Source of the DNA: an uncultured Acidobacteriaceae bacterium
GTDB taxonomy: Bacteria; Acidobacteriota; Terriglobia; Terriglobales; Acidobacteriaceae
Length of the DNA: 64,000 nucleotides
Direction: 5' to 3'
Assembly: GCA_964243375.1 (NCBI GenBank)
Contig: CAXTEE010000005.1
Coordinates: 51,006 to 115,005, forward strand
The notes beneath the pieces were generated by a model, which made no database searches, was not told where the DNA came from, and worked only from the letters and a program-made list of their open reading frames with translations. A program made the position numbers and the translations under genes. This document shows, in pieces, positions 31,234 through 59,519 of this stretch. Numbering within the stretch: the first letter of the stretch is position 1; each line of letters starts with the position of its first letter.

Positions 31234-34047
31234 ATGACAACCCCAGAACAAATTGGACGATATCGCGTTACAGGCGAACTTGGCCGCGGCGGTATGGGAG
31301 TTGTGTATCGGGGCGAGGACCGTCTGATCGGCCGCGAAGTTGCCATCAAGACTCTGACTGAGGCAACTCCGGAGCTACGTGAGCGGTTCTTCATCGAGGC
31401 ACGATCGGGCATTCTAAGCCATCCCAATATAGTCACGGTCTACGAACTCGGCGAGCATGAGGGAAGCCCCTTCATCGCCATGGAGTTTGTAGGTGGAGAG
31501 TCGCTTGAGAAGCTTCTGCGCGCGCGCAGAAAGCTACCGTTGCTGGAGGCCCTTTCGATCATGGAGCAGCTGTGTTCCGGGCTCGGTCACGCCCATGGAC
31601 ATGGAGTCGTGCACCGAGATGTAAAGCCCGCGAACATCTTGATTCGCCCTGACGGTCGGGTGACCATTGTCGACTTCGGTATTGCGCGACTTGCGGATCA
31701 GACTCGGCAGCTCACAAAAACGGACGCACTGCTGGGGACCTTTCACTACATCGCTCCGGAACGCCTGAAGGGTGAGGCGAGTGATGGCCGGGGCGATGTC
31801 TGGTCGGCAGGCGTGATCCTCTATGAAATGCTGACGGGCGAGCTTCCGTTCAAGGGCGACGATGTTTCGTCGCTCTACCGGATGATCCACGAACCCTATG
31901 TCGCGTTGACCGAATACGTGCAAGACCTTCCGGAAGGTTTGAGCGCCGTGCTCGACAAGGCACTTGCGAAGCAAGTTGAGGATCGCTACCGAACAGCGGA
32001 AGAGGTTAGCTTCGATCTGCAGGTGATCGCTGAAGGACTGAAGCACGACCGAGTTAGCATTTTGATCGAGACAGCTCGCCGCCTCACGGAAGAGATGCAA
32101 TTTGCAAGTGCTCGGACGGTCCTGCTTCAGGCCCAGCGCATTGATCCGGGAAACGTTGATGCGAAATCACTTATCTATGACGTGCAGGAGCGCTTGAGCC
32201 GTCTGCAGCGCAGTGAACAGCTGCGTCAAATCGTGGAGCAGGCACACAATGCCCTTGGCGATCGCCGGTGGGATGATGCCATCCTGTTCTTTCAGCAAGC
32301 CGTCAAACTTGATGCCGACGATGATCATTCAGTGGACGAACGTCTCCTATACGCGCAGGAGCAAAAACGGCAACAGCAAAGGGTCGCATCCCTTTGCGAG
32401 CAGGCAAGCGAAGCGCGGAGTCGAGGTGACCTGACGCAGGCGCAGGAGTATCTGACGCAAGCTCTCAGGATCGATGGGCAGAACACCGATCTGCGAAATG
32501 CTCACTCCGTTATTCTGCGAGAAATTGAGCGCAGACAGAGGGGATTGCGGGTCGAAGAGCTTCTGCGAAGTGCTCGCGAGAGTTTCAGCGAGCAGCGGTA
32601 TACGGAGGCGATCGACCATCTGCGAAAGGCTGCCGACTTTGACCCCACTCAAACAGAGGTACAGCAGCTACTCTTCACGGTGGTCACACGGCAAAAAGAA
32701 GAACGCAGGCAGCAGCTGCTCGACAAGGTCGCAGCTGAGATCCAGGAGTGCCTTGCACGTGAGGATTTCGTTGTGGCGCAGGATCGCATTCTGAGAGCGC
32801 TCGAGACTCTGCCAGGCGAAGGCCTCTTACTGCGGCTCAAGGCCGAGGCGGAGTCGAAGAAGCGAGATTTCGATACCGAGCGAATCGTACGACAGGTCAT
32901 GTTCGAGGTGCAGGAGCTCTTTTCGGACGATCCGGCAGTTGCATTGAAAGCTGTCGAGCGAGGACTTCAGGACGCCCCCGAGAGCGAGGTATTGAAGCAG
33001 TCCAGGTCACGGCTTCAGGAGCATCTGAATCATCTCGAGATTGCCGCGGCGCGAGCAGACGCACTGGTTAAGGCGCATGCCGCAATCGAACAGCGAGAGT
33101 TTATTGAGGGAAGGCGCGTGCTTGAGCTTGTGCTCGGCGCACACGGGGCGAATGACGAACTAAGCCAACTTCTGGCTGTTGCGAGGGCCGGACAGGAGAA
33201 GCAAGAGCGCGAGGCGGCGCTCCTACGAAAGATGCAGGAGACGCACACCGCAATCGAGCACGCTGTTGCTTCCTTCAGCAAATCGCTCGCTGCCGGCGAC
33301 CTGAAACGCTGCATGCAGCCGCTTGAAGAGATCACAAGACGGCTTGGTGCAGAAGAGGGTGTAAAAGAGGCTGTTATTGGTTGCAAGGCTAAGAGAGGTG
33401 CCGCGGCGGAACAGCGCCTCGTAAGAGCAGTGGAAAGTGCTCGCAGACTGCTCACGCAGGGCGAGATCAAAGAAGCTTCAGTACAGCTGCGCCGCTCGGA
33501 GTTCGCCCTTCCCTTCGCGACTCCAGCTCTGAGTAGCGAGTACGACCGCACGAAGGCTGAGCTGGCGACGGCCATACATGCGAGGAAGAAAGATCGTCCG
33601 TCGCTATCTCTACTTAAGAAAGGACAACTAATACGTTACGCGGCTCTTGTCCTGACGCTCTGCATTGTGTTCGCAGCCGCCGCGCTTTTTCGATCACACC
33701 ATCATAGAACCCCAGCGCAAGTAACTCTTGTGCGCACACCCTCGCGTCAACCTGCGTCATTGCCAGTCGCTGTGCAGCGGACGGATATGGAGATCAACGC
33801 GACTCCCTGGGCAAGGGTGGTGCGTGTAGAAGGCGAAGGTGGCCAAGACGTTCCATTACCGAAAGAGCGTCCCGCTACGCCGCTACGATTGGACAACGTA
33901 GCGCTGGGCAAATACACTATCACTCTTTCCGATCCCAGTGGCGGTTCGCATACGACCGAGTGCCGCATATCGATGACCGATCATCTCTGCATAGCAGTTG
34001 TATACGCAATTGATCTGCGCCAATTGCTGACGGGAGATCGCCTGTGA
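31234..34047 (+). CDS. T6SS-associated Ser/Thr kinase (PpkA-like) with long helical region, TM and PEGA-like C-terminus
   Basis: GRGGMG, VAIK, HRDVKPAN, DFG, APE; TM near residue 810. Confidence 0.92.
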   Translation: MTTPEQIGRYRVTGELGRGGMGVVYRGEDRLIGREVAIKTLTEATPELRERFFIEARSGILSHPNIVTVYELGEHEGSPFIAMEFVGGESLEKLLRARRKLPLLEALSIMEQLCSGLGHAHGHGVVHRDVKPANILIRPDGRVTIVDFGIARLADQTRQLTKTDALLGTFHYIAPERLKGEASDGRGDVWSAGVILYEMLTGELPFKGDDVSSLYRMIHEPYVALTEYVQDLPEGLSAVLDKALAKQVEDRYRTAEEVSFDLQVIAEGLKHDRVSILIETARRLTEEMQFASARTVLLQAQRIDPGNVDAKSLIYDVQERLSRLQRSEQLRQIVEQAHNALGDRRWDDAILFFQQAVKLDADDDHSVDERLLYAQEQKRQQQRVASLCEQASEARSRGDLTQAQEYLTQALRIDGQNTDLRNAHSVILREIERRQRGLRVEELLRSARESFSEQRYTEAIDHLRKAADFDPTQTEVQQLLFTVVTRQKEERRQQLLDKVAAEIQECLAREDFVVAQDRILRALETLPGEGLLLRLKAEAESKKRDFDTERIVRQVMFEVQELFSDDPAVALKAVERGLQDAPESEVLKQSRSRLQEHLNHLEIAAARADALVKAHAAIEQREFIEGRRVLELVLGAHGANDELSQLLAVARAGQEKQEREAALLRKMQETHTAIEHAVASFSKSLAAGDLKRCMQPLEEITRRLGAEEGVKEAVIGCKAKRGAAAEQRLVRAVESARRLLTQGEIKEASVQLRRSEFALPFATPALSSEYDRTKAELATAIHARKKDRPSLSLLKKGQLIRYAALVLTLCIVFAAAALFRSHHHRTPAQVTLVRTPSRQPASLPVAVQRTDMEINATPWARVVRVEGEGGQDVPLPKERPATPLRLDNVALGKYTITLSDPSGGSHTTECRISMTDHLCIAVVYAIDLRQLLTGDRL

Positions 34048-35339
34048 GAGCCGTCGCTTGGCCCGTGCTCTTATTATTGATCGTGTCTGCCCCTGGTCCG
34101 ACGTACACCCCGGCTCCACGCGCCAGCCAAAGCGCTGACGATCTGCGCGATCTGGCAAACAAAGCAAAGGATACGGGAGACCTGCTAAGTTCAACGAGCT
34201 TCATCTGTCAAGCAGCTATCCGGGACGATAGGTACGCGAAGCGTTGCGAGAAGTCGAGGGTGGATCTGGAGAGGGCACTCGCTCAATATCAAGCCGATCT
34301 CAACATGGGTCGCACTGAAATCGAACGCAAGGATTATGGAGGAGCGATCCGCGACCTGAGCCGGATTACCTTCGGCCCCAACAAAGACGAGGCACTTGAA
34401 CTGCTGCAACAGGCCCGCGTAGGAAGCGGACAGATCTCGCCAGAAGCAGCTAGTCAGATGACCCTCGCTGCCGCGCAAGCGGCGTATGAAGCTGGCAACT
34501 TCGATCGTGCTGAAGCCCTGCTGAAGCGGGTACAGACACCTGGGGTCCGCTATGCAGCCAACCAGATTCTGACAAATATGTCGGTTTACCGAGACACCAT
34601 GAAGCAGGCAGACACTCTAGCGCACAATGGAGACTACAAGGATGCGGCAGCCAAGTACGGATTTGCTTCCGCGATCCAGCCGAAAGGTCCCGGTCAACCG
34701 CAACAGCGTCTGCGTGACGCACAGGATGCAGAGTTGAGGCTCGAATCCGCGAAAGAACAGCAGATGGCGAGTCAGCGACTCCAAGAGCAGCAAGCGGCTG
34801 CAACGAAAGTGAAGCTCGGAACATTGCAATCGCCGTTCCAGGCTCAAATGAATGACGCGTCTAAGATCAAGACATCCCTGGCGGTAGCGCAAAAGTTTGA
34901 ATCGGCAGGCCAGTTGAAGGCTGCGCTTGAGGCCTATGAAGCCGTCCTAAAGCTGGATGCACGCCAAAAGGTCGCCCTTACCGGAAAACAGCGCTTATCT
35001 GCCGTCGTAAAGACAGATCCACGAACGGTTGAACATCTCTTGATCCAAGGTGTCACCGACTTTTACGCCTCTCGCTTTCAACAGGCAAATAATGGCTTTC
35101 ACTCCTACCTTTCGGGAGGAGGAAAGCAGCACTGCGCCGCCGCTCACTTCTTCTTTGGGGCATCCCTCCTGTCGCAAGCCATGCTGGATGATCCAGCCGA
35201 CACCGATAACCTGAATAAGCTACGTCAGCAGGCGCAACAGGAATTTGTTGCGGCCAGGCAGCAACACTACCTTGCCCCTGAGACGTTCATCTCGCCGAAG
35301 ATTATGGCCGAATGGTCGAGAACAGGTGCTCAGCCATGA
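34044..35339 (+). CDS. Secreted TPR-like helical protein
   Basis: Signal peptide MRAVAWPVLLLLIVSA with no lipobox Cys; overlaps both neighbours by 4 nt. Confidence 0.8.
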   Translation: MRAVAWPVLLLLIVSAPGPTYTPAPRASQSADDLRDLANKAKDTGDLLSSTSFICQAAIRDDRYAKRCEKSRVDLERALAQYQADLNMGRTEIERKDYGGAIRDLSRITFGPNKDEALELLQQARVGSGQISPEAASQMTLAAAQAAYEAGNFDRAEALLKRVQTPGVRYAANQILTNMSVYRDTMKQADTLAHNGDYKDAAAKYGFASAIQPKGPGQPQQRLRDAQDAELRLESAKEQQMASQRLQEQQAAATKVKLGTLQSPFQAQMNDASKIKTSLAVAQKFESAGQLKAALEAYEAVLKLDARQKVALTGKQRLSAVVKTDPRTVEHLLIQGVTDFYASRFQQANNGFHSYLSGGGKQHCAAAHFFFGASLLSQAMLDDPADTDNLNKLRQQAQQEFVAARQQHYLAPETFISPKIMAEWSRTGAQP

Positions 35340-36091
35340 AGAGCAGCCCGAGTCTGCCGGAAAGCCATCCAGCCTTAAGGATTGGACTTAGACTAGAAGC
35401 CGCGGGGCTCTCCGATGTGGGCTGCAAACGCACAAACAATGAAGACAGCTTCGGGTATGACTTAGACTCGAACATCTTTATTGTTTGCGATGGGATGGGA
35501 GGGATGGCGGCTGGCGAGGTTGCGAGCGCCGTGGCGGTGGAGCAGGCTCTAAAAACGTATTGTGACTCCTGCCACACGTCCTCGGAGCCAGAGGCACGCC
35601 TCCACGCAGCAATCACCAGCGCAAACCGTTTTGTGTGGCATCTGGCGCAGAGCCGTCCGGAACTTTACGGCATGGGAACAACTCTGGTCGCGGCGTGTGT
35701 CCATGGCGACCAAGTCGTGATCGGCAACGTTGGTGACAGCCGAGCCTACTTTCTGCGTGATGGTGCTTGCGTGCAGATCACGAAAGATCATACCTACGTA
35801 GCAGAACAGGTCAGCGCGGTGGAACAATCCGTTTCGATCCAGCAATTCATTACACGTGCGATTGGAGCAGATTCGATGGTGGAGCCCGACTTCTTTGTGG
35901 CCGAAATCCGAACAGGCGACATTATTTTGCTCGCGACTGATGGACTTACACGGTATGTAAACGCAGACGTGATCACACATCATGAGCAGATGGCCCAAAC
36001 TCTCGAAGACCTATGCTGCGGTCTCCTCAATGTGGTCCAAGCTCAGGGAGCAGACGATAATCTGACCTGCGTTGCTGTGCGCATTCTGTAA
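35336..36091 (+). CDS. PP2C-family Ser/Thr phosphatase (PppA-like)
   Basis: VCDGMGG, NVGDSRAY, LATDGL, GADDNLT. Confidence 0.93.
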   Translation: MKSSPSLPESHPALRIGLRLEAAGLSDVGCKRTNNEDSFGYDLDSNIFIVCDGMGGMAAGEVASAVAVEQALKTYCDSCHTSSEPEARLHAAITSANRFVWHLAQSRPELYGMGTTLVAACVHGDQVVIGNVGDSRAYFLRDGACVQITKDHTYVAEQVSAVEQSVSIQQFITRAIGADSMVEPDFFVAEIRTGDIILLATDGLTRYVNADVITHHEQMAQTLEDLCCGLLNVVQAQGADDNLTCVAVRIL

Positions 36092-36181: not shown

Positions 36182-39100
36182 TCACTGCGCCACCTGTGCG
36201 ACGCAGTGAAGTCCGGCGAGCGAGCCAGGCACGAGGATACTCGCCGCGGGCCCGGAGATCTCGATTCGTTCGGTTAATGGCGTGCCGTTCACAATGATAG
36301 GTGTGCCTGAGATCTCTAGCGGATAAGCAAGGCGAACAGGCGTTGCAGTCTGTTCCACTCGGCCTCTATCCACAAGATGAAACAAAGACCAGTTTCCCGA
36401 GAATTGCAGTGGGAGGTTGTTACTTCCGTAGCTTGCAATTAATTGGGCCTGTTGTGCAGTCTGCGCCGACCAGGTGAACTGCGTGCTGACATCGCTGCCC
36501 GATAAGCGCTGTGCGTCAAGAGCAAGTGTTACGCCTTGAATGCCAGGCGATGGCGGGATATGCGCGGTAAAGTTCAGCGTCGGTGTAGCTGCTCCATTTG
36601 CAAAAAGAGCGTTGGACAGTGCTGCGGCGCGATTGAAGAACTCAATGAATTGCGAGGTCGGCTTCAGAACGGCGAGGGGAGAGGCCACCCAACGATCACC
36701 TTGCTGCACAAGCTGTGGTTTGAGGCTCGCTTCATAGAACTGCCACAGCAGTCCTGTGGCCGGCTTGAGCGCATTCGTGACTTCGGCCGGAGTTGCCTCA
36801 AGAGTCGCTTTCCGATCAAAGGGGAATTTGGCGAGGATCGGAGCTAAATTCGAGCAGAAAGCTCGACCCGCCAGATTGATCTGTTCCGGTGCTGCGCCGC
36901 GTATTGCATCCTCGACCGAAGTGATCGGCTCCTGCATGAGCTTTGTAAGGGTCTGTTCCACGTGTGCCTGAGTATTGATATCAAAGGCCTGAGCGGTTTG
37001 GCTCACAGCCGCATGAGCACTTATTGCCGCGGCAATCACGGGTTGAGCTGCTGATGGATTGTTCGGAGCGGAGACGTCTTGAGTAAATTGCGACACGGCT
37101 CCACTCAAACCGATCAAGCCGTTCACATAAACTGTGTTTCCAGAACCGATCAATCTATCCTTCACTGTTGGCGGCACAAGGGCCTGTGCGGGCTGGAACT
37201 CGTGTGCGACTAAGTCACCAGCTACTGCTGTATTGCTTGACGCGGTCGCAACAAGGGCCAGCAGAGCTGAGTTAGGTGAGGATAGGCTTTGCAGCTTCTG
37301 ATGAGCGTCAGCTAAGCTTCGGTATCGAACCACCGTGGCGGAACGCAGATATTGGAGCCATTGCTCCTTGAAGTCAGATAGGTAGCGGGCTCCGAGCTTC
37401 TGCCCAAGCGCCTGCCCCTGAGTTGATGCGGCAACCTGTTCTCCAAGCACCCAGGTTTCGCCAGTAAAATACTGGTCGGGATGCTCCACGGCTCGCTGTA
37501 CAAAGACAAATCCCGCCCGGCTAAATGCCCCCGGCACAACGTGCGACTCAATTACAGTCGCCACCGAGCCTGGAAACATGTGATTAAAATCTATCGCTGG
37601 CGAACCCTGTGAAGCTGCCGCAAGGATGTTCTGGTAAATGCGATCTAGACTCCCGAAGCTATTCAGGTAGCTGCGCGCACGAGTGATCGCAGTTAGGTCT
37701 GGACTCTGATCATAGAGCTGCGCGGCGCGGAGCTCTTCACCATAAAAGCGAAATTGCTGATCGGCTAGTTGGAGTTGCCTGTCACTTTCTGTGTGTTGGC
37801 CATTGAGCCAGAACTTCTCCAGCACAGGTGCAAGGAAAGCCGAAGTGCTGAATTGGTGATAAGACGTAGTGATCAGATAAGCGCGAAGCGGAGAGTAGAC
37901 CGCACGATAGTCGGCATCCGCAGGCGCAATAGCTGGCAGGCTGGTCAGAGCCCTTTGCATGTTCTCTTGTGTGCTTGCGAGCAGGAGCCAGTGAAATCGT
38001 TCTAAGTACAGTTGGCGTGCAGGACCGATCAGCGAGTCTCCATAATAGAGACCCCACCGAGACATTAGCGGAGCTCCGTCTCGATTAAACTGCTCAAGCT
38101 CGAGTAAGGCAAGCCGGAGTTGATCGAGCTCGCCCAGTTGAACACTTGAGGCAAGTGACACAGGAGCCGCAGTTGCTGGGAGAGAGGCGGCGGCGGCGCG
38201 GATCACGCCTTCCATGCGCGCATTGTTTCTGTACGAGATTGTGAGACAGATGCCCCAAGCGAGTAGAAGGGACGACGTTGCTATCAGCAGGCCCCGGCGC
38301 AGCAATGAAACACGTACGCTTGATGAATTCGTAAGCTTACGTTCCTGCTGCGCCAAAAAGACGTCTGGAAAGATCCTTGGCAGGAAGCACCATTGTGCGA
38401 TGCGGCGGCTGACACTCTGTGGGAGAGCGGTGGATGCCTCCGCGATCTCGATCTGCTGCAATGAAAGAATGCCTGTTGCCGCACCTTTGCTTAAAACGCG
38501 GCCCGGCACAGCGGCAGGAGCGCTGATAGCCTGCTCAATAATTTGCGCGCGAACTCCTACGCAGAACAAGCCGCGTAGAGAAGGATTAACGTTGAGGTGG
38601 CTTGGACGTGCGAGCTCAACGAGATAGCTAGCTAGATTACTCCGAAGCTTCTGCAGTTCACGCGGGAATTGATAGATGAGAGGTATGTGGTCGGATGCTG
38701 CTTCGCGGCCAAGAACCTCCAGCCTAAACTCTGTCAGCGAAAAAAAGAGCTTGTCCAGCGCTGAGGACAGAACGGCCGAGGCGTGCTCCGCGTAGACGCC
38801 CTGTGTGAGAATGCCGGAGGGAAGCAGCACACCGAGACGCTCGGAAGCCTCAGCGTTGTTGAGGTTGCGCGTGTATTCAGCAAAGCCGGGGACTCGATCC
38901 AGTTTTGTGAGCAGCACATGCACCGGAAGCTCCGCCCCGAGGTGATCTGCAATCTGGCGAAGCACAGCGTTAGTCTCTCGGCCAAGCGCCGCAGAAGCTT
39001 CAGCCGCATTCACTCCGAAGAACGATTCGCTGCTGACGCACACAACCGCGGCGCGCAACGGACGCGTTACGCCGAAGACAGATCGCAGAAGCTTTGGTCT

Positions 39101-39631
39101 GGTACGACGGACGAGGACGTTTGCGAGGCTTCTCCAATGCGGAGTCCCTGGCGCAAGCGCCTCCCCGGCATCAACGAGTAGCGCGCCTTGCGCATACCAG
39201 AGATTGACGACTCGGGTGGAGGCGATCACTTCGTCCTGATAGGCCTGCCCGGCAAGGAGCTCAGGATCAAGTCCTGATTTCAGGATCATCGTTGTTTTCG
39301 CGCTGTTTGACGATCCCAGAATATATAGCAGGGGGATTGTGTGAAGCGAAGGAGAAACACCCACACCGTGGGAGCCTGCGAGACGCTGCTCAGCCTCTCG
39401 CAACAGTGCGGTGAACTCTAAGCTCCTCGTTGCTGACCTTGAGGGGGAGCCGGATTCAGCGCGACGTGACCATAACCAATAGACAAAGAAAGCGGTCGCA
39501 GCACCGAGCAGAACAACGCCGATACGAAAGAGAAGAAGTGGCGTGCCCTGCAGATGGAGCGCGGGTGCGGCCAGCCAGATCAGCAGCGTGGAGAGCAGCA
39601 GAAAAAGTGCGGGGTATAAGTACAAAGCCAC
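36182..39631 (-). CDS. tssM: T6SS membrane complex TssM (ImcF)
   Basis: Two N-terminal TMs; ImcF-N (LYILGSSNSAKTT, LTKLDRVPGFAEY); third TM; C-terminal GNWSLFHL. Confidence 0.9.
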   Translation of the reverse strand: MALYLYPALFLLLSTLLIWLAAPALHLQGTPLLLFRIGVVLLGAATAFFVYWLWSRRAESGSPSRSATRSLEFTALLREAEQRLAGSHGVGVSPSLHTIPLLYILGSSNSAKTTMILKSGLDPELLAGQAYQDEVIASTRVVNLWYAQGALLVDAGEALAPGTPHWRSLANVLVRRTRPKLLRSVFGVTRPLRAAVVCVSSESFFGVNAAEASAALGRETNAVLRQIADHLGAELPVHVLLTKLDRVPGFAEYTRNLNNAEASERLGVLLPSGILTQGVYAEHASAVLSSALDKLFFSLTEFRLEVLGREAASDHIPLIYQFPRELQKLRSNLASYLVELARPSHLNVNPSLRGLFCVGVRAQIIEQAISAPAAVPGRVLSKGAATGILSLQQIEIAEASTALPQSVSRRIAQWCFLPRIFPDVFLAQQERKLTNSSSVRVSLLRRGLLIATSSLLLAWGICLTISYRNNARMEGVIRAAAASLPATAAPVSLASSVQLGELDQLRLALLELEQFNRDGAPLMSRWGLYYGDSLIGPARQLYLERFHWLLLASTQENMQRALTSLPAIAPADADYRAVYSPLRAYLITTSYHQFSTSAFLAPVLEKFWLNGQHTESDRQLQLADQQFRFYGEELRAAQLYDQSPDLTAITRARSYLNSFGSLDRIYQNILAAASQGSPAIDFNHMFPGSVATVIESHVVPGAFSRAGFVFVQRAVEHPDQYFTGETWVLGEQVAASTQGQALGQKLGARYLSDFKEQWLQYLRSATVVRYRSLADAHQKLQSLSSPNSALLALVATASSNTAVAGDLVAHEFQPAQALVPPTVKDRLIGSGNTVYVNGLIGLSGAVSQFTQDVSAPNNPSAAQPVIAAAISAHAAVSQTAQAFDINTQAHVEQTLTKLMQEPITSVEDAIRGAAPEQINLAGRAFCSNLAPILAKFPFDRKATLEATPAEVTNALKPATGLLWQFYEASLKPQLVQQGDRWVASPLAVLKPTSQFIEFFNRAAALSNALFANGAATPTLNFTAHIPPSPGIQGVTLALDAQRLSGSDVSTQFTWSAQTAQQAQLIASYGSNNLPLQFSGNWSLFHLVDRGRVEQTATPVRLAYPLEISGTPIIVNGTPLTERIEISGPAASILVPGSLAGLHCVAQVAQ

Positions 39632-39639
39632 GTGAACTC

Positions 39640-40323
39640 CTAGAGCCCGTTAAGGGCACTCCCCCGCAGAGCGTCGATGCCGGATGAGAGCAAGGCGTGA
39701 TATCCCGTAAAGGCAATCAGCAATAGAGCGACGAACGCGCAGGCGGTCCAGAGAAGATATCGGTTGAATGTTTCGGGAGATCGGTGGGAGTCTGCGGACG
39801 GCAGCTCTTCCGCAACCAACCGGGCATCACCCCGAATACGCCGGATGCGCTTGCGCGCTTCCCGCAGCTGGGCGTACAGCTCTCCACTTCCTCCAAGAGC
39901 ATGCCTGCCCCTGTAACCGAGCAGAAGGCAGAGACAGTAGAGCTCCAGAACATCGGCCAAATGAGGAGAATCAGGCTGTCGAAGATAATCGCGGAGATTG
40001 CGGAAGAAGGTCTCCCCTGCAAGATGACCTCCGAAAAGCTCTTCCTGAAGCGGACGTCGTGCCCACTGCGCGAACACAGGATCCTGCAGGTTTAACACGC
40101 TCTCATCGAGCAGGGCCACGACCGCGAAGACAGCTGCCTGAACAGTGTCTCCTGTATATCCGAGTGCGCGCGCTTGGTGCATGGGCGCCTGAAGAGCTTG
40201 CCGGATTTGTACGCGGAACACCTCAGCATCAGTAACAGGCTGCAACCGAAAGCGAACGCGAACGACTGCCGTAAGCACTTCACCAAAGGAGGACGCGAGG
40301 CTTGCCGAGCGTGTGCTGCTCAT
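39640..40323 (-). CDS. tssL: T6SS TssL (DotU family), no OmpA domain
   Basis: AVVALLDESVL, WARRPLQEELFG..AGETFF, CLLLGYRGRH, C-terminal TM. Confidence 0.93.
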   Translation of the reverse strand: MSSTRSASLASSFGEVLTAVVRVRFRLQPVTDAEVFRVQIRQALQAPMHQARALGYTGDTVQAAVFAVVALLDESVLNLQDPVFAQWARRPLQEELFGGHLAGETFFRNLRDYLRQPDSPHLADVLELYCLCLLLGYRGRHALGGSGELYAQLREARKRIRRIRGDARLVAEELPSADSHRSPETFNRYLLWTACAFVALLLIAFTGYHALLSSGIDALRGSALNGL

Positions 40324-41684
40324 GCCATGCTTTCCGTTGAGTCTTCAAGAATGACGGTCAGCGTGAACTCTGGGTCGGCGAGTTCGCCGGGAATGTAGAT
40401 GCCAACGGATCTAGTCTGAAGAATGTGCTGCCAGCAAGGGCCTGTGGTGTCGATAGCGTAGTACTGCATGTCGGCAGCTGCACGAATGGACGAAGGTGGC
40501 ACGGGAAGATGGGCCAGCGCCATGCCGGGCAACGCACGCTTCACTAGCTCTGGTACGAATCGCTCACTGCATATCTTTACGAGCTTCGGGGCCCGACGAA
40601 GCTGATCTGACTCCGCAAGAGAAGAGCGAAGGCCAAGCACCCACCGAGCCCTTCGTAGGCATCGCTCGTCTGCCACCGGGGCGCTGTACATATAGGGCGC
40701 GACCGAGCTGAAAACAAGACCGACCGTGTTGGTCGGTACGATGATCTCAAGGTGTCGGAGAATGTGGCTGGAAATTGTACGAAACGCTGGTCCAGGATTG
40801 AGATGATCGTAGTCTGGAAGGCTCCTCGGATCTGAATCGAGAGCGAAGGTGCAGAGCGCTCCCGCCAGCCTTGCAAGTTCCGCGAAACACTCGGAAGGAT
40901 GCGCGTAGCACGCATTGACCAGATGTTGCAGCGGTGGCAGAGCACTGTGAAGAGCATGAAGGAACCAGTAATTGGCTATATCCATCGCAAGGCCGGGGGG
41001 CTGAAGCTGGCCTTCCATCTGTACAGGACGTGGGATGGCGATACTTTTCTCGGATACGCCCTCCATGATTCGCTTCATCAAGAGTGTAAGCGCATCGCTC
41101 GCACTCAGACGAAGCGAACACGGAATGAAGTCAGGGTCATACGCAAAGTTGCCGTTTGAATCGCGAATGATACGGGCGATCGGCAGTGTGAGGATCCCTG
41201 GTGTTACCTCAGGCGTTGCCAGTATGCGAATGTTCTTCCGTCCTAGCTCGACGTCATACTCATCGACGCCATTCGTTTCATCCCGTAGCGACCGAAGCAC
41301 GCCCGAGTAACGTGGCTCTGACGTCTCCGTCCGTGAAGTGTCGTAATCATCTCTATCCCGTACAGGCACCGCAAGCTGTAAGACAATTTCTCCGTCAGAA
41401 GGATGCGTAAGTGAACTGACGGACCGTGGCGGCGGCAACGAGTCGGAAGTGGGCATGTCAAACGTCAAGCCGTCTGAAAAGATCCCCGATCCATGCAAGA
41501 GCGCCACCGTGCCGTTTGCGATGGCTTTTATGTCCATCTGGAGATGCAGAATGCCCCAAGGTTCTCGCCAAAGGCAGGACGCCAGAAATGTGATCGAATC
41601 CTCAAAGTAGCGGCTCTGAGTTTGAAAGTGATGAGGCGCGAGATACATACCCTCCGACCACACCACTCGTGAAAGAAACTTCAT
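40320..41684 (-). CDS. tssK: T6SS baseplate TssK, copy 1
   Basis: VVWSEGMYLAPHHFQ, YDHLNPG, LVKRALPGM. Confidence 0.93.
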   Translation of the reverse strand: MKFLSRVVWSEGMYLAPHHFQTQSRYFEDSITFLASCLWREPWGILHLQMDIKAIANGTVALLHGSGIFSDGLTFDMPTSDSLPPPRSVSSLTHPSDGEIVLQLAVPVRDRDDYDTSRTETSEPRYSGVLRSLRDETNGVDEYDVELGRKNIRILATPEVTPGILTLPIARIIRDSNGNFAYDPDFIPCSLRLSASDALTLLMKRIMEGVSEKSIAIPRPVQMEGQLQPPGLAMDIANYWFLHALHSALPPLQHLVNACYAHPSECFAELARLAGALCTFALDSDPRSLPDYDHLNPGPAFRTISSHILRHLEIIVPTNTVGLVFSSVAPYMYSAPVADERCLRRARWVLGLRSSLAESDQLRRAPKLVKICSERFVPELVKRALPGMALAHLPVPPSSIRAAADMQYYAIDTTGPCWQHILQTRSVGIYIPGELADPEFTLTVILEDSTESMA

Positions 41685-41763
41685 ATCTACTCATCCGTCC
41701 CGCCTCTCCGGTGATGCTTTCGAAGCATCGTGCCCTGATACGCCGGAAAGTTCTGCACTGCCT

Positions 41764-41794
41764 GAAATAACCCCCCACCTTAACGGTTTATTCC
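41764..41794. promoter_or_regulatory. Overlapping divergent ECF-type promoter motifs (9-13-9 quasi-palindrome)
   Basis: Plus strand GAAAT(41764)-N17-GTTTA; minus strand GGAAT(41794)-N18-GTTAT. Confidence 0.6.
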
Positions 41795-41842
41795 ACCGCG
41801 GACAACGAGTTCGACGCGCATCGAGAGAAAAGAGGATGAAGT

Positions 41843-42814
41843 ATGAGCAACGAAGAAGAGCCATCCAAAGTCTCGCTACCGCAGAAGGTACAGGAGGCAC
41901 TTAGGGCCAATGGAACAGCACCGAAGGTAAGCACGACTCACGGAGCGGATCTAATTGGCATCTTCAAGCAGGTAAATGTTCGCGAAGCATCGGCCTCACC
42001 ATTGGAAGACCGGTTCAGAACCAGTAATAAACAGGCGGGGACGGCCACGGATATTTTCTCAACAACAACACCGGAGTCTGTGGGTGTCGAGCCGGGATTT
42101 ACACAGATCTTCGACTCTCTTTCTGAAAGCAAAGTACTAGACCAGGATCGTCTCGCACCTTCTCCTCGGGCGCAGGATCCGTTACCGTCGTGGAGTGAGC
42201 TGACGTCTAGTAAATCGCGCCAGTCACCGCACTCAGATGGCGCAGGAGATTTTACAAAGCTTTTCGACCGGCTCGACACTCACGGGAAAGAAGATGCCGT
42301 CAGTTTACAGGCGAACTACCATGAAGTGCCGCCTCTACCGCCGGAACCTAAACCGGGCAGTGGGTTTACCCAGCTTCTGCGAACACTCTCCAGTGAGAAC
42401 GATTCACCTGCCGATACAGGACGCGAAAACGGTTCGATCACCGTGCAGCCTGCACCCGAAGCACCGGGGGAGTTCACTCGCATCCTTTCACGCTCCGCAC
42501 TGCGGGCATTAAGCCAACGTGGTACCCAGAATGACACACCTAAGCCTGACCGATCGGAACCAGAGGAACACATCCATTTGCCGCGGTCTCTGACGCACAA
42601 TTTGCCCATAAACACTAGCCCCTCCAACTTCGCAGGCTTGAGAGATCCACAGGTCTCAAGCGCTCCCGAGCCGCCATTCGCTAACGCAGGGGTGAACCTT
42701 CAGCGTGGCGGAAAGCTGCAGGAGTTTGTGCCTCTACTTTTGATCGCAAACCTCTTTGCCATGCTCGTTGTAATTCTTCTGGTCGCAATCGCACTCTTCA
42801 GCCATCACGGATGA
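41843..42814 (+). CDS. Low-complexity tail-anchored protein with repeated G-x-F-T-x-[IL]-[FL] motifs
   Basis: AGAGGA upstream; S/P/T-rich; PGFTQIF, GDFTKLF, SGFTQLL, GEFTRIL; C-terminal TM. Confidence 0.8.
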   Translation: MSNEEEPSKVSLPQKVQEALRANGTAPKVSTTHGADLIGIFKQVNVREASASPLEDRFRTSNKQAGTATDIFSTTTPESVGVEPGFTQIFDSLSESKVLDQDRLAPSPRAQDPLPSWSELTSSKSRQSPHSDGAGDFTKLFDRLDTHGKEDAVSLQANYHEVPPLPPEPKPGSGFTQLLRTLSSENDSPADTGRENGSITVQPAPEAPGEFTRILSRSALRALSQRGTQNDTPKPDRSEPEEHIHLPRSLTHNLPINTSPSNFAGLRDPQVSSAPEPPFANAGVNLQRGGKLQEFVPLLLIANLFAMLVVILLVAIALFSHHG

Positions 42815-42823
42815 AGCACCTTG

Positions 42824-44197
42824 CTAGCTCGAACCTCGCTGATCTGTCATAACAACAGGAAGAAGAATGAGTTCCATGCGCGGGTTTCGCAGTTCGTCGG
42901 GCACGTATACACCAAAATTGCGAGCCCTCTGAACGGTTTCCCAGGCGGCCCCGACGCGATCCAAACTGAAATATTGAAAATGTAGCTTAACCGGGATTTC
43001 TCTAGGAGGTGAGGCCACATGCGTCATGGGAATTCCAGGAAGTGCCTGGCGGATGAGAGTCTCAAGATGCGTAGCGGAGCAGGCTTTAACAAGTGCCGGC
43101 GTCCGCGTTACAAGTTCTGCAATGGGAACGTCGGCAGCAATTGCGAGATAAGCCCGCGCACCTAGAAGGTACTCATCGCGCTCTATCTCGGTCGTGTAGA
43201 CCGAATCGCGACTCTGGCGGAGTGGCAGAGCAAGAAACCTACTTGGAATCACCGTGTCAAGCAGGTGCAGGATTTGCGACTCGAGCTTGCAAAAGCTGCT
43301 GCCCTGTGTCTCGTGCTCGTAGCGCGGAAAATCCAATGGCCCGACAGTGTGCGAGAAGGTCGTGAGTGCACCAGCAAGCGCAAGCAGTTGCTTGTATAGG
43401 GATTCTGGATGGACGTGCGAAGCCTCAAGCAACCCGTGCAGGATGGGCAGATGTGAGTTGATTGTGTACAGCAGCCAGAAGCTGGCCACATCCGCCGCGC
43501 TAAAATCTGCCAGAGACTGGCTCCTCTGACGGCGACCTCCGGCAATCTGCGCACTTCGGGACACTAGCGTCTCCACCAGACCGCGCAGCGTCCTCAGGAG
43601 GCGGCTGCTTGCTCGAACGTTGAGCATAGGTCCGACAAAATCCTGATCGAGTGTGTAGCGGCCCGCATCCGTGCGCAAGACACGCGTGAGCGGGATGGTA
43701 ATGAGACCTTCAAGATTCTCATGCTCCGCGACAATTCTCAGGTTCTTGCGCGCGAGTGATACAGGCTTTTCCACACCTCCGCCGTTTTCATCGCGAAGCA
43801 TTCGAAGCTCTGCGTAGAATCGCGTGCTGAGACCACTACGCTGCTGAGCTACATGAATGCCACCGCGTCTGGCCTCTGGAATTGCCAAAAAGAACGTACA
43901 AGCGTTCATCCCACCGCTCATACATTCATCCAAGGACCGCGAAGGCGGCGCCTCGTCAGCTGTCGCAGTATCAAACGGAAGTCCGTCTGGGAACAGACCG
44001 GACACTTCAGCCAGTTGAAGCTGCCCTTCGATGATGGAGGCATTCTCTATCTGGAGCGAAGCATATCCCCAAAAGCGAAATGACAGGGCCTCCATATTAA
44101 AGCGCAAAGACTCTTCGAAGTACCTATCTTGCGCCTGGAGGTGTTGGGGAGAGAGAAAAACACCTTTGGACCAGATAACCGGTTGTAGCTGCCTCAT
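42824..44197 (-). CDS. tssK: T6SS baseplate TssK, copy 2
   Basis: GAGGA RBS, MRQLQPVIWSKGVFLSPQHLQ; LIRQALPGI. Confidence 0.93.
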   Translation of the reverse strand: MRQLQPVIWSKGVFLSPQHLQAQDRYFEESLRFNMEALSFRFWGYASLQIENASIIEGQLQLAEVSGLFPDGLPFDTATADEAPPSRSLDECMSGGMNACTFFLAIPEARRGGIHVAQQRSGLSTRFYAELRMLRDENGGGVEKPVSLARKNLRIVAEHENLEGLITIPLTRVLRTDAGRYTLDQDFVGPMLNVRASSRLLRTLRGLVETLVSRSAQIAGGRRQRSQSLADFSAADVASFWLLYTINSHLPILHGLLEASHVHPESLYKQLLALAGALTTFSHTVGPLDFPRYEHETQGSSFCKLESQILHLLDTVIPSRFLALPLRQSRDSVYTTEIERDEYLLGARAYLAIAADVPIAELVTRTPALVKACSATHLETLIRQALPGIPMTHVASPPREIPVKLHFQYFSLDRVGAAWETVQRARNFGVYVPDELRNPRMELILLPVVMTDQRGSS

Positions 44198-44297
44198 AGT
44201 TTCCTCGATGTTCAACCGACCAACCATCTAGACCGTCGGTCCTCTGCGACTGCAAGCAGCTCACTTACTTAGATACGCAAGCAAATTGATCCACACG

Positions 44298-44328
44298 GGA
44301 ATAGACACTCGCCACCCGTGTTTATTCC
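44298..44328. promoter_or_regulatory. Overlapping divergent ECF-type promoter motifs (GGAATAGAC-N13-GTTTATTCC)
   Basis: Plus strand GGAAT(44298)-N17-GTTTA toward tssB; minus strand GGAAT(44328)-N17-GTCTA toward tssK2. Confidence 0.65.
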
Positions 44329-44417
44329 AGCAGAGCAAAGTAGGACTGCCCGAGCCGATCGAGGCAGGGTCGTTCAACTCGTTACATTTTATAGTTCCCG
44401 GAGTGATAGGAGCAGAC

Positions 44418-44930
44418 ATGACTAGAGAAAGTACACAACGCAAGTTGAGCCGGGTCCGTCCACCGCGCGTGCAAATCACCTACGACGTGGAAGTCGGCGA
44501 TGCTATTGAGTTGAAGGAACTGCCATTCGTAATGGGAATTCTCGCAGATCTCACCGGACAACCAGAGCAGCCACTTGCGCCGCTTAAGGAGCGAAAGTTC
44601 ACCGAAATAACCCCGGACAATTTTGACGCCGTCCTCAGCAGTCTAGACCCTCGTCTCGCCTTTTCCGCCGAGAATGTCCTCAGCAACGATCCGACCAAGG
44701 GGCAGCTGCACGTGGACTTGCATTTTGAATCCATGGACGACTTTTCCCCCGAGCGCGTAGCTGCACGGATTGAGCCTTTGCGGCAGTTGCTCGAACTTCG
44801 CACCAAGCTCTCCGATTTGCAGGGTAGCTTGCAAGGCAATGACAAGCTCGATGAAGCACTGTTCGCTGCTGTGACCAACACAGAGCTCCGCGAGAAGCTT
44901 CGCTCCGAACTGAACACCCCGGGAGAATAG
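44418..44930 (+). CDS. tssB: T6SS sheath small subunit TssB
   Basis: STQRKLSRVRPPRVQITYDVE, ELPFVMGILAD, DFSPERVA. Confidence 0.96.
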   Translation: MTRESTQRKLSRVRPPRVQITYDVEVGDAIELKELPFVMGILADLTGQPEQPLAPLKERKFTEITPDNFDAVLSSLDPRLAFSAENVLSNDPTKGQLHVDLHFESMDDFSPERVAARIEPLRQLLELRTKLSDLQGSLQGNDKLDEALFAAVTNTELREKLRSELNTPGE

Positions 44931-57985: not shown

Positions 57986-58561
57986 ATGTCTACTCCCCAG
58001 GTATCAATCGCATCTTCGGCATTTGGAAGTGAGCATATCGACAGCTTGTATCGCTACGCGCTCGTGTTGACCCGCAATCAGTCCGATGCGGAGGATCTGG
58101 TACAGGAAACGTATGTACGAGCAATCGAGGCATTCAATCGACTGCGTGAGGACAGCAACGTGAAGGCATGGCTTTTCACAATTCTGCGGAATCTTTGGCT
58201 CAACGCACTTCGAAAGCGTCGAAGTGGGCCAAAGCTGGTGGAAGAGGATGGGGAGAACCGTACTCTTGATGATCTCGTAGGAACAATGCCGGATGCCTAC
58301 AAACTTCTTGAAGACGAGGAAGACGCCAGTCGTGTTCGATCAGCTATCAGCAAGCTTCCTTCAGACTTCCAGACGATCCTCATCCTGAGGGAGTTTGAGG
58401 AGCTTAGTTATCAGGAGATAGCCACGGTTCTCAGTTGCCCGGCAGGCACCGTCATGTCGCGTTTGGGAAGGGCACGGGCGAAGCTCCGAATCCTGTTGAC
58501 AGAGGGGGGGAGCAAGCCTCTACAGTCGGGAAGAATGGACCAGCATGAGCAGCTGCGATGA
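57986..58561 (+). CDS. ECF sigma-70 factor (SigR/SigH-like)
   Basis: DAEDLVQETY, VKAWLFTILRN, LSYQEIA..CPAGTVMSRLGRAR; AAGGAG RBS. Confidence 0.95.
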   Translation: MSTPQVSIASSAFGSEHIDSLYRYALVLTRNQSDAEDLVQETYVRAIEAFNRLREDSNVKAWLFTILRNLWLNALRKRRSGPKLVEEDGENRTLDDLVGTMPDAYKLLEDEEDASRVRSAISKLPSDFQTILILREFEELSYQEIATVLSCPAGTVMSRLGRARAKLRILLTEGGSKPLQSGRMDQHEQLR

Positions 58562-59519
58562 GCATCGGGCGAACATTTCGCTCTTGATCGATGGGGAACT
58601 CGCACAGGAAGATCACAGAAATCTCGTCGCACACTTTGAGCAGTGTGCGTCCTGCCGGAGTGCGCTTCAGGATGAGCAAGCACTCTCTGCCCGGATCAGA
58701 GCCGCTCGACCGCGGATCGCAGCGCCCGACTCACTACGGGCCTCTATAGAACGTATGCTCCGAGCTGCAGCAGTCTCCACACCCGCTACTCGCCGCATGA
58801 CCTTCACATCTCCTCATCTTTGGCTGCGGCCACTGCTTGCTGTCGCTGCCATACTCATCCTGATCGCCGGAAGTACGTTCGCCTTCCATAAGCATCGCCA
58901 GGACCGCAACGAAGTTGTCATTCAGGCCGCCACGACAGCTCATCAACAACTCCGGGATCGGGTCGTACCACTCGACATCATCTCTGATTCCCCCGAGGCC
59001 GTGACCTCGTGGTTCGCAAGCAGAGTGTCCTTCCCATTTCGCATGGCAAACGCGGGCATCGCATCCGATTTGCGAGCAAACTACAAACTCGATGGCGGAC
59101 GACTCCTCACTATCGGCGATGATCGAGTAGCTGTAGTCTCCTTTCACATGCTGCATGAGCAGGTCAGCATGCTCGTTGCTCCTCAGCGGCTTCTCACAGC
59201 GTCGGGCGGCAAGGTCGTCGTCTCAGGTGGAATTGCCTTGCACAGCCGCGATCGAGATTCAATCCATACCGTGATGTGGAACAATCGCGGACTCGGATAC
59301 GTGCTGAGCGCGAACACTTCCATGAGCAATCCGCATACATGTGCCACCTGCCATGAAGGATCACAAACTGGTGCGAACACGGGCAGTAGGACATTTGCCT
59401 CAAGCCTTGCGCCTTGGAGCACCAATGGTTCTCTTCTGTCGCCGACGTTGAAAGTAGCAGACGTGCCAGCGCACATCGAAGAGGTGGGAGCAGACTTAAA
59501 CAGGAACACGGCTCAGTGA
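58545..59519 (+). CDS. Transmembrane anti-sigma factor with ZAS (zf-HC2) motif and periplasmic CxxCH motif
   Basis: HFEQCASC; one TM; CATCH at 59340-59354; overlaps the sigma gene by 17 nt. Confidence 0.88.
   Translation: MSSCDEHRANISLLIDGELAQEDHRNLVAHFEQCASCRSALQDEQALSARIRAARPRIAAPDSLRASIERMLRAAAVSTPATRRMTFTSPHLWLRPLLAVAAILILIAGSTFAFHKHRQDRNEVVIQAATTAHQQLRDRVVPLDIISDSPEAVTSWFASRVSFPFRMANAGIASDLRANYKLDGGRLLTIGDDRVAVVSFHMLHEQVSMLVAPQRLLTASGGKVVVSGGIALHSRDRDSIHTVMWNNRGLGYVLSANTSMSNPHTCATCHEGSQTGANTGSRTFASSLAPWSTNGSLLSPTLKVADVPAHIEEVGADLNRNTAQ

Follow-up and report, generated by a model that had tools for sequence, protein, structure and literature searches.

The locus and its conservation

The DNA analysed here (hereafter the window) is a stretch of 64,000 nucleotides from an uncultured Acidobacteriaceae bacterium (contig CAXTEE010000005.1). 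It carries a type VI secretion system (T6SS) cluster with two tssK genes, and between these lies an unnamed gene (41843..42814, plus strand) for a protein of 323 amino acids (aa), which we call P0001. Our analysis describes P0001 very probably as a tail-anchored, intrinsically disordered protein of the inner membrane that carries linear motifs, each centred on a threonine, and we hold with high confidence that it is an accessory component of the T6SS. The minus strand carries tssM, tssL and both tssK genes. The first tssK (40320..41684, 454 aa) is divergent from the P0001 gene and heads a tssK-tssL-tssM set, in which tssM and tssL (36182..40323; tssL itself at 39640-40323 according to Pfam) encode the membrane complex and are candidate partners of the conserved anchor described below. 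The second (42824..44227, minus strand, 467 aa) is convergent with the P0001 gene. Both TssK proteins are full length, share 33% identity and belong to separate orthologous groups that are both kept across related loci. The plus strand continues downstream with tssB, tssC, hcp, tagJ, tssA, tssE, tssF, tssG, clpV, vgrG and a PAAR-like gene. TssJ (PF12790) was not detected in the 98.5%-complete genome; otherwise the cluster is complete. Upstream of tssM, the plus strand encodes a Hanks Ser/Thr kinase, a secreted TPR-like protein of 431 aa and a PP2C phosphatase (31234..36091).

The position of the gene is strongly conserved. An exact-protein look-up found it in the same slot at all seven metagenomic or genomic places (7/7). 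Moreover, when 31 related loci (25-43% identity) were surveyed by tblastn, 30 had it between orthologues of TssK1 and TssK2, the TssK1 orthologues being about 60-75% identical to TssK1 in most of these loci. The location between the two tssK genes, given in a reading of this DNA made without database searches (the sequence-only reading), was confirmed by gene neighbourhood, and homologues proved to be linked to T6SS loci. In another genome of the same genus (G259) the slot holds a member of 760 aa, which came to light when the interval between its tssK genes was read directly. A whole-genome profile search with the alignment of the P0001 family (A1) recovered only the P0001 gene and missed this member; negatives of that search do not count, as low-complexity repeat proteins can slip past its first-look filter. 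In genome G279 a member of 886 aa, which belongs to the sister family described below, stays with tssK1-tssL-tssM and the kinase, with no tssK2 or tssB nearby, which indicates that the gene is linked most closely to that half of the cluster which encodes the membrane complex. TssK itself occurs in 31 of 301 genomes of the phylum that were surveyed, and adjacent TssK pairs were found only alongside the motif protein. A direct motif scan detected no multi-motif open reading frame (ORF) within 8 kb at the 19 single-TssK loci.

A second link to the secretion system lies in the DNA upstream of the gene. GTTTATTCCA occurs exactly twice in the 64 kb, once 57 nt upstream of the P0001 ATG and once upstream of tssB, and forms one arm of an inverted repeat, GGAATAAC-N12-14-GTTTATTCC. 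The first copy (TGAAATAACC-N13-GTTTATTCCA, 41763..41795) lies in the divergent intergenic region of tssK1 and P0001, and the second (GGGAATAGAC-N13-GTTTATTCCA, 44297..44329) in that of tssK2 and tssB. At seven of eight other loci (L001, L003-L006, L008, L009) the repeat is kept in both divergent intergenic regions, the tssB-side copy of L006 being degenerate; it is missing at L011. The claim that P0001 has the same DNA motif upstream as the T6SS genes thus holds for a shared, conserved element of putative regulatory function, which may be either two promoters placed back to back or an operator. No sigma-70-like promoter was present near the inverted repeats, and both a sigma-54 and a sigma-70 reading of the shared motif were rejected since neither consensus fits. 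An extracytoplasmic function (ECF) sigma/anti-sigma pair is encoded at 57986-59519 of the window. As regards tssB (44286-44930), its longest ORF starts at TTG 44286 and comprises 214 aa; however, ATG 44418 is the likely start because homologues measure 161-176 aa and the Pfam match begins at residue 55.

P0001 belongs to a large family of unnamed proteins. A word-indexed search returned 24 homologues with 29-41% identity; none of them has a name, and some are encoded by Acidisarcina polymorpha and Granulicella. When 1.84 billion representative proteins, clustered at 50% identity, were searched with a profile, the matches comprised at least 457 clusters in Acidobacteriota at E <=1e-3 and 236 at E <=1e-10. 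Many relatives are much longer than P0001, up to 941 aa, with 5-20 motif copies; the long ones carry up to about 20 copies of GSFTQMFQ.L in Pro/Ala-rich linkers, followed by motifs like the third and fourth of P0001 and the same anchor. A literature search for the motif strings or for a tail-anchored disordered T6SS protein returned nothing relevant. We consider that this unannotated family should be named and that annotation pipelines should include a profile model for it. For one member, HDF16_005107 of Granulicella aggregans (JACHIP010000012; L007, 10001-10555), the deposited 184-aa call probably lacks the N-terminal part of the protein: the frame is open from 9605 and then gives 316 aa that align along the entire family.

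Architecture of P0001

P0001 starts at the first ATG in its frame, with GAGGA ahead of it. The cytoplasmic part of about 290 residues is rich in serine (11.9%) and proline (10.5%), disorder-promoting residues make up 65% of it, and its linkers are poorly conserved. Only one hydrophobic segment is present, with a maximum 19-residue Kyte-Doolittle mean of 3.1 at residue 298 versus 0.29 for the next best. An AlphaFold2 model built with a 25-sequence alignment shows a helix at 296-322 with a predicted local distance difference test score (pLDDT) above 90, whereas the remainder stays at about 50 and forms no folded domain; short, weak helices appear at 86-93, 176-180 and 219-224. Neither a signal peptide nor a second hydrophobic segment was found in the whole 323-aa protein. 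The N-terminal 290 residues can therefore not be exported, and we discarded the idea of a periplasmic protein or one resembling TonB or TssJ. Besides, neither Pfam nor NCBIfam gave a domain match for P0001 or for ten long relatives, the DotU helical domain (PF09850) found no match in P0001 in Pfam, and no tandem DNA repeats are present within the gene.

Conservation is not restricted to the hydrophobic character of the tail. In the juxtamembrane segment and transmembrane (TM) anchor (KLQEFVPLLLIANLF..., residues 291-320, 42713..42802, plus strand), Q293, P297, L299, L300 and F305 are invariant across the alignment, and the family form reads LQ.YVPLLLIANLF. This exceeds what a passive anchor would need.

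The cytoplasmic part is punctuated by six motifs, four strong and two weak, that share the core [FL]-T-x-[ILM]-[FL]-x-x-[LV], all on the plus strand. The weak M0 (DLIGIFKQV, residues 36-44, 41948..41974) follows the family consensus DLTGIF.QV with Ile in place of Thr, and the other weak copy is ATDIF (residues 68-72, 42044..42058), which roughly half of the homologues keep as AT[DE][ILF]F. The strong motifs are M1 (PGFTQIFDSL, residues 84-93, 42092..42121), which coincides with the predicted helix 86-93; M2 (GDFTKLFDRL, residues 135-144, 42245..42274); M3 (SGFTQLLRTLSSE, residues 173-185, 42359..42397), which has the highest conservation in the protein with a column mean of 0.94; and M4 (PGEFTRILSRSALRALSQR, residues 208-226, 42464..42520), including PGEFTRILSRSALR at residues 208-221 and with G209, E210, T212, S216, S218 and R221 invariant. 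The pattern FT[RQK][ILMV][FL] occurs four times in P0001 and 22 times elsewhere in the six-frame ORFs of the same genome (5.6 million residues), never twice in one ORF; against this background the Poisson probability of at least four copies within 323 aa is 1e-13. Across P0001 and its 24 homologues the motif columns are conserved at 71-94%, compared with 25-37% for the linkers. The sequence-only reading had described a Ser/Pro-rich protein of this length punctuated by motifs, with one C-terminal TM segment and the character of a disordered tether with short, helix-prone motifs. Each of these points was supported, and the conservation check it had suggested came out in favour of the motifs.

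Moreover, every orthologous motif retains a form of its own, namely DLTGIF.QV, GFTQ.FQSL, GEFTRLF.RL, the nearly invariant GGFTQLLRTLS.E and GPGEFTRI.SRSALREA. This argues for specific recognition, and it bears on the possibility that the motifs are membrane-active or self-associating, lying on the inner leaflet or driving condensates and thereby shaping the firing site without a specific partner. Such behaviour would agree with the high hydrophobic moment at M2-M4, with the multivalent display of motifs within Pro/Ala-rich linkers and with the precedent of Fha, which forms condensates and has a membrane-binding helix (bioRxiv 10.1101/2023.12.21.572528). However, the distinct sequence of each motif is not expected for a partner-free role, and M1 lacks the flanking basic residues typical of membrane-targeting helices, so that we regard this explanation as very unlikely.

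Still less credit can be given to the notion that the gene is a hitch-hiker (an effector, an immunity gene or an unrelated membrane protein) or a spurious ORF. The lack of matches in the domain libraries would fit it, as would P0247, a distant member of the sister family described below that lies outside T6SS loci. Nevertheless, a slot between core genes that is conserved across families at 25-43% identity, the regulatory repeat common to the gene and tssB, conservation focused on the motifs and the TM segment, and homologues numbering in the hundreds make it extremely improbable.

A sister family with a kinase N-lobe head

In genome G290, from another acidobacterial family, the slot between the two tssK genes encodes a protein in which a head some 90 residues long precedes eight PGEFT(Q/R)(L/M)F repeats and a TM segment at the C-terminus. 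More than 340 homologues of this sister family (A2) were found and none of them is annotated. The gene of one member, P0171, also lies between two tssK genes; that of P0230 is divergent from a gene for a 1234-aa Hanks kinase at a vgrG-PAAR island, and the more distant P0247 stands outside any T6SS context. Searched against the PDB, the profile of the head matched protein-kinase N-lobes only and in the correct register, with marginal scores (best E = 0.026). AlphaFold2 predicted three strands, helix C and two strands with a pLDDT of 85-94, and the top 50 Foldseek matches were all protein kinases, aligned across the N-lobe.

Profile-profile alignment shows that A1 and A2 share homology across the final three motifs, M2-M4 (hhalign probability 98.4%, E = 6e-15). 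Together they make up a so far undescribed superfamily of GEFT-repeat tail-anchored T6SS proteins, in which the repeated motif reads G-x-[FY]-T-x-[ILMV]-[FL] and the linkers are rich in Pro, Ser and Ala; P0001 has both of these features. Common to both are the G-x-F-T-x-Φ-F core, the Pro-rich linkers, the C-terminal TM segment and the genomic slot; specific to A1 are the invariant M3/M4 pair and the LQ.YVPLLLIANLF anchor. The N-lobe head is missing from all 25 A1 sequences, P0001 included. The P0001 subfamily is thus the head-less version of a layout of N-lobe, repeats and TM segment, in which the repeats take the place of the juxtamembrane linker of a receptor kinase, given the kinase N-lobe fold of the A2 head. 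The likeness to the linker of PknB-like receptor Hanks kinases comprises a disordered, Thr-bearing segment beside a TM helix, the location of the sister-family repeats between kinase N-lobe and TM segment, and a preference for Thr with a hydrophobic residue at +3. On the other hand, P0001 has no catalytic or extracellular domain, its repeats are greatly expanded and their phosphorylation is putative. Several long head-less members (P0069, P0091, P0081 and the one at L032 5217-7499) carry PVVHEVVF...(D/G)..LL..LR near the N-terminus; this stretch resembles the beta3-helix C part of the sister-family N-lobe, of which it is perhaps a remnant.

At the sister-family loci L033 (5592-7115, minus strand) and L034 (643-2082 and 9542-11056) a 500-aa MTS-type methyltransferase adjoins the repeat protein. 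The same loci have a second, PKMT-like methyltransferase and a CsgG-like gene after tssM, and a kinase was not seen in their flanks.

Threonine specificity and the cluster kinase

We determined which residue occupies the Thr position by anchoring on G-x-[FYW]-X-x-[ILMV]-[FL] with X left free. In the P0001 family, X was Thr in 98.5% (459/466 instances) and Ser in 0.4% (2 instances). The sister family (609 instances) had 92.9% Thr, 3.3% Ala, 2.0% Glu, 1.1% Asp and 0.5% Ser, and the same anchored pattern elsewhere in the genome of P0001 only 4.4% Thr. As a helix N-cap would take Ser, Asp or Asn as well, Thr itself is under selection. Bacterial Hanks kinases favour Thr with a hydrophobic residue at +3, for instance in the substrates of Mycobacterium tuberculosis kinases (PMC3138270, PMC7164672), and the motif Thr has a hydrophobic +3 residue that matches this preference. 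The kinase of the cluster retains the Gly-rich loop, the beta3 Lys and the HRD and DFG motifs intact, and has a TM segment near residue 800 and a small periplasmic domain. Among the 31 loci, a kinase or PP2C phosphatase adjoins tssM wherever the flank suffices, with the exception of L018, L023 and L025. The kinase N-lobe carried by the homologous sister family and the lack of FHA genes lend further indirect support. From this pattern, phosphorylation of the motif Thr by the cluster kinase can be proposed tentatively, with a chance that we put somewhat below even.

The strictness of the Thr position fits a phospho-acceptor; however, it could equally reflect a specific structural contact, and several further observations weigh against phosphorylation as the function of the motifs and against the kinase-controlled role developed below. 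A PP2C phosphatase was not seen within the flank at L018 and L025. At L023, insertion sequence (IS) elements stand upstream of tssM and the kinase module is absent, and at L033 and L034 methyltransferases are found instead of it. In P0001 itself, M0 has Ile for Thr, and certain copies in the sister family carry Ala, Asp or Glu, so that a phospho-acceptor is not needed in every copy. The acidic replacements represent few evolutionary events and should not be over-read. Furthermore, the genome contains no FHA domain and hence no known reader of phospho-Thr, and the mutual exclusion of FHA genes and motif proteins reported in the next section is confounded by phylogeny, since the single-TssK systems are other T6SS lineages.

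L023 (1-2600; Bryobacteraceae chromosome OZ255821) is unusual also in its gene order. Upstream of tssM it has transposase genes in place of the kinase/PP2C module, and tssK1 and the motif gene are separated by an insertion of two unrelated genes.

Some of these observations would be explained if P0001 were purely a docking scaffold, with amphipathic helices that bind TssK or other T6SS parts and a Thr of structural importance, serving a specific hydrogen bond plus methyl contact or capping the helix, while the kinase acts elsewhere, for example on TssL. The hydrophobic spacing of the motifs (i, i+3, i+4, i+7) and the weak AlphaFold2 helices at them fit this explanation, and so do the retention of the gene at loci without a visible kinase module and the Ile in M0. 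It also has precedents, namely the hydrophobic TssG loops that dock into TssK trimers (PMC6300606) and TssL, which is already known as the PpkA substrate in Agrobacterium (PMC3953482). Nevertheless, a capping role is hard to reconcile with 98.5% Thr versus 0.4% Ser, since an N-cap tolerates Ser, Asp and Asn; moreover, the sister family is built upon a kinase N-lobe, and a kinase or PP2C phosphatase adjoins tssM in most loci with enough flank. We therefore consider pure docking rather unlikely.

Conversely, P0001 could be an element of the kinase pathway without any scaffolding, acting as a multisite substrate, decoy, phospho-sink or allosteric partner of the kinase that sets the threshold of T6SS activation. 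Numerous near-identical Thr motifs whose copy number varies from 5 to 20 would suit such a role, as would the position of the P0230 gene beside that of a 1234-aa Hanks kinase at a vgrG island. PknB-type kinases dimerise through the N-lobe, and the head of the sister-family proteins might engage the N-lobe of the kinase in this manner. However, the tightest linkage of the gene is to tssK1-tssL-tssM and to the dual TssK arrangement and not to the kinase, the conservation of the TM and juxtamembrane segments exceeds the need of a bare anchor, and a linked kinase is missing at several loci. Taken alone, a pathway role of this kind is improbable.

Absence of FHA proteins and a possible role resembling that of Fha

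TssC of the window is closest to 9n4v and next to TssC1 of the Pseudomonas aeruginosa H1-T6SS. The H1 lineage normally carries Fha, PpkA, PppA and TagJ. An FHA domain (PF00498, PF16697; positive controls of the models fired) was found neither in the 64-kb window nor in the 98.5%-complete genome, which extends to the genome the absence of an FHA protein claimed by the sequence-only reading. We built a hidden Markov model from FHA domains found beside tssK in other acidobacterial T6SS loci and used it to survey the loci. Of the 19 single-TssK acidobacterial loci, 13 have between one and three FHA genes next to tssK, whereas none was found with the same model in the 37 motif-protein loci (36 loci and the 64-kb window). 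TssK of the single-TssK lineages is only 25-35% identical. The FHA protein of L037 is a classical Fha that combines an FHA domain with a disordered, Pro-rich region and a C-terminal domain. At the single-TssK loci L038-L049, one to three consecutive FHA genes stand ahead of tssK-tssL-tssM, and most other FHA proteins inspected at single-TssK loci have an FHA-TM-periplasmic layout and are not classical cytoplasmic Fha proteins. The cluster described here represents a distinct acidobacterial T6SS lineage with two TssK paralogues and no Fha, and P0001 is very probably a dedicated accessory protein of this lineage. In clusters that keep the kinase and the phosphatase yet have no FHA domain, the family takes the place of Fha.

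What decides where and when the T6SS assembles is under active study, and a recent proposal casts Fha as an assembly initiator that forms condensates. Its disordered region and C-terminal membrane-binding helix are indispensable, whereas the FHA domain is partly dispensable, and its binding partners comprise TssL, TssM, TssE, TssF, TssG and TssK (bioRxiv 10.1101/2023.12.21.572528; PMC13389060). Similar features are found in P0001 when it is compared with Fha/TagH proteins such as Fha1 of the P. aeruginosa H1-T6SS and Fha of Acidovorax citrulli and Vibrio cholerae: the gene adjoins tssK-tssL-tssM, a long disordered region is followed by a C-terminal element for membrane association, and a PpkA-type kinase and a PP2C phosphatase are associated. 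Fha1 itself is a substrate of PpkA. However, P0001 lacks an FHA domain and any detectable sequence homology to Fha, has a true TM tail anchor where Fha has an amphipathic helix, and carries defined, repeated Thr motifs, and its scaffold function is proposed by analogy.

As P0001 holds both kinds of element that are indispensable in Fha and shares its neighbourhood, we propose a model of anchored, kinase-tuned capture. The conserved TM anchor would pack against the TssL/TssM membrane complex, and the multivalent amphipathic motifs would capture or concentrate cytoplasmic T6SS parts there, with the TssK paralogues as the likeliest targets; P0001 would thus do the job of the disordered region and the membrane-binding C-terminus of Fha. 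The near-invariant motif Thr would be a likely target of the PpkA-like kinase and the PP2C phosphatase, and multisite phosphorylation could in that case gate assembly without an FHA reader. In this sense P0001, with its tail anchor and without an FHA domain, might be the functional counterpart of Fha and tether cytoplasmic T6SS parts, probably under control of the cluster kinase, a proposal whose chance we rate as close to even but short of it. The Fha-like scaffold role taken by itself is drawn from the analogy and has, in our estimate, nearly as much in favour as against. More broadly, the acidobacterial T6SS probably has in P0001 a component not described before, either an accessory part or the target of a phospho-switch. 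The sequence-only reading consequently stands with respect to a disordered, motif-bearing and tail-anchored tether linked to the T6SS, while its docking to TssK and its Thr phosphorylation remain proposals.

It is plausible that the motifs bind TssK or the baseplate, as the gene co-occurs with dual TssK (30/31) and is absent from the 19 single-TssK loci; that TssK is the direct partner of P0001 is nevertheless doubtful. The loops of TssG dock onto two non-equivalent TssK trimers per wedge (PMC6300606), which suggests why two TssK paralogues could coexist. Loops 1 and 2 of TssG in the baseplate of enteroaggregative Escherichia coli (PMC6300606) resemble the motifs as short segments with spaced hydrophobic residues, those of TssG facing a TssK trimer. 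They differ in spacing and sequence and sit in a folded protein, and a contact between the P0001 motifs and TssK is a proposal.

A more specific version of the model combines both families in a Thr-phosphorylation switch of Terriglobia-type T6SSs that is free of FHA. Here, a tail-anchored remnant of a receptor kinase, in which the juxtamembrane Thr repeats are left and the N-lobe is either kept or lost, would be modified by the cluster kinase at many T-x-Φ-F motifs, and this multisite phosphorylation would directly gate the recruitment of one or both of the specialised TssK paralogues to TssL/TssM. We consider such a switch unlikely as a whole; if true, it would be a new post-translational control of firing made from a degenerate kinase. 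If P0001 is a scaffold or a phospho-target, an unrelated disordered protein can supply an Fha-like function. In addition, the lineage would then offer a natural case of two TssK paralogues in the two non-equivalent wedge positions, and the T-x-Φ-F peptide a handle on the connection between baseplate and membrane complex.

Finally, P0001 shares a single C-terminal TM segment, a cytoplasmic N-terminal part and the operon region with TssL (DotU). However, it does not have the DotU fold, and its cytoplasmic part is disordered where that of TssL is a helical bundle.

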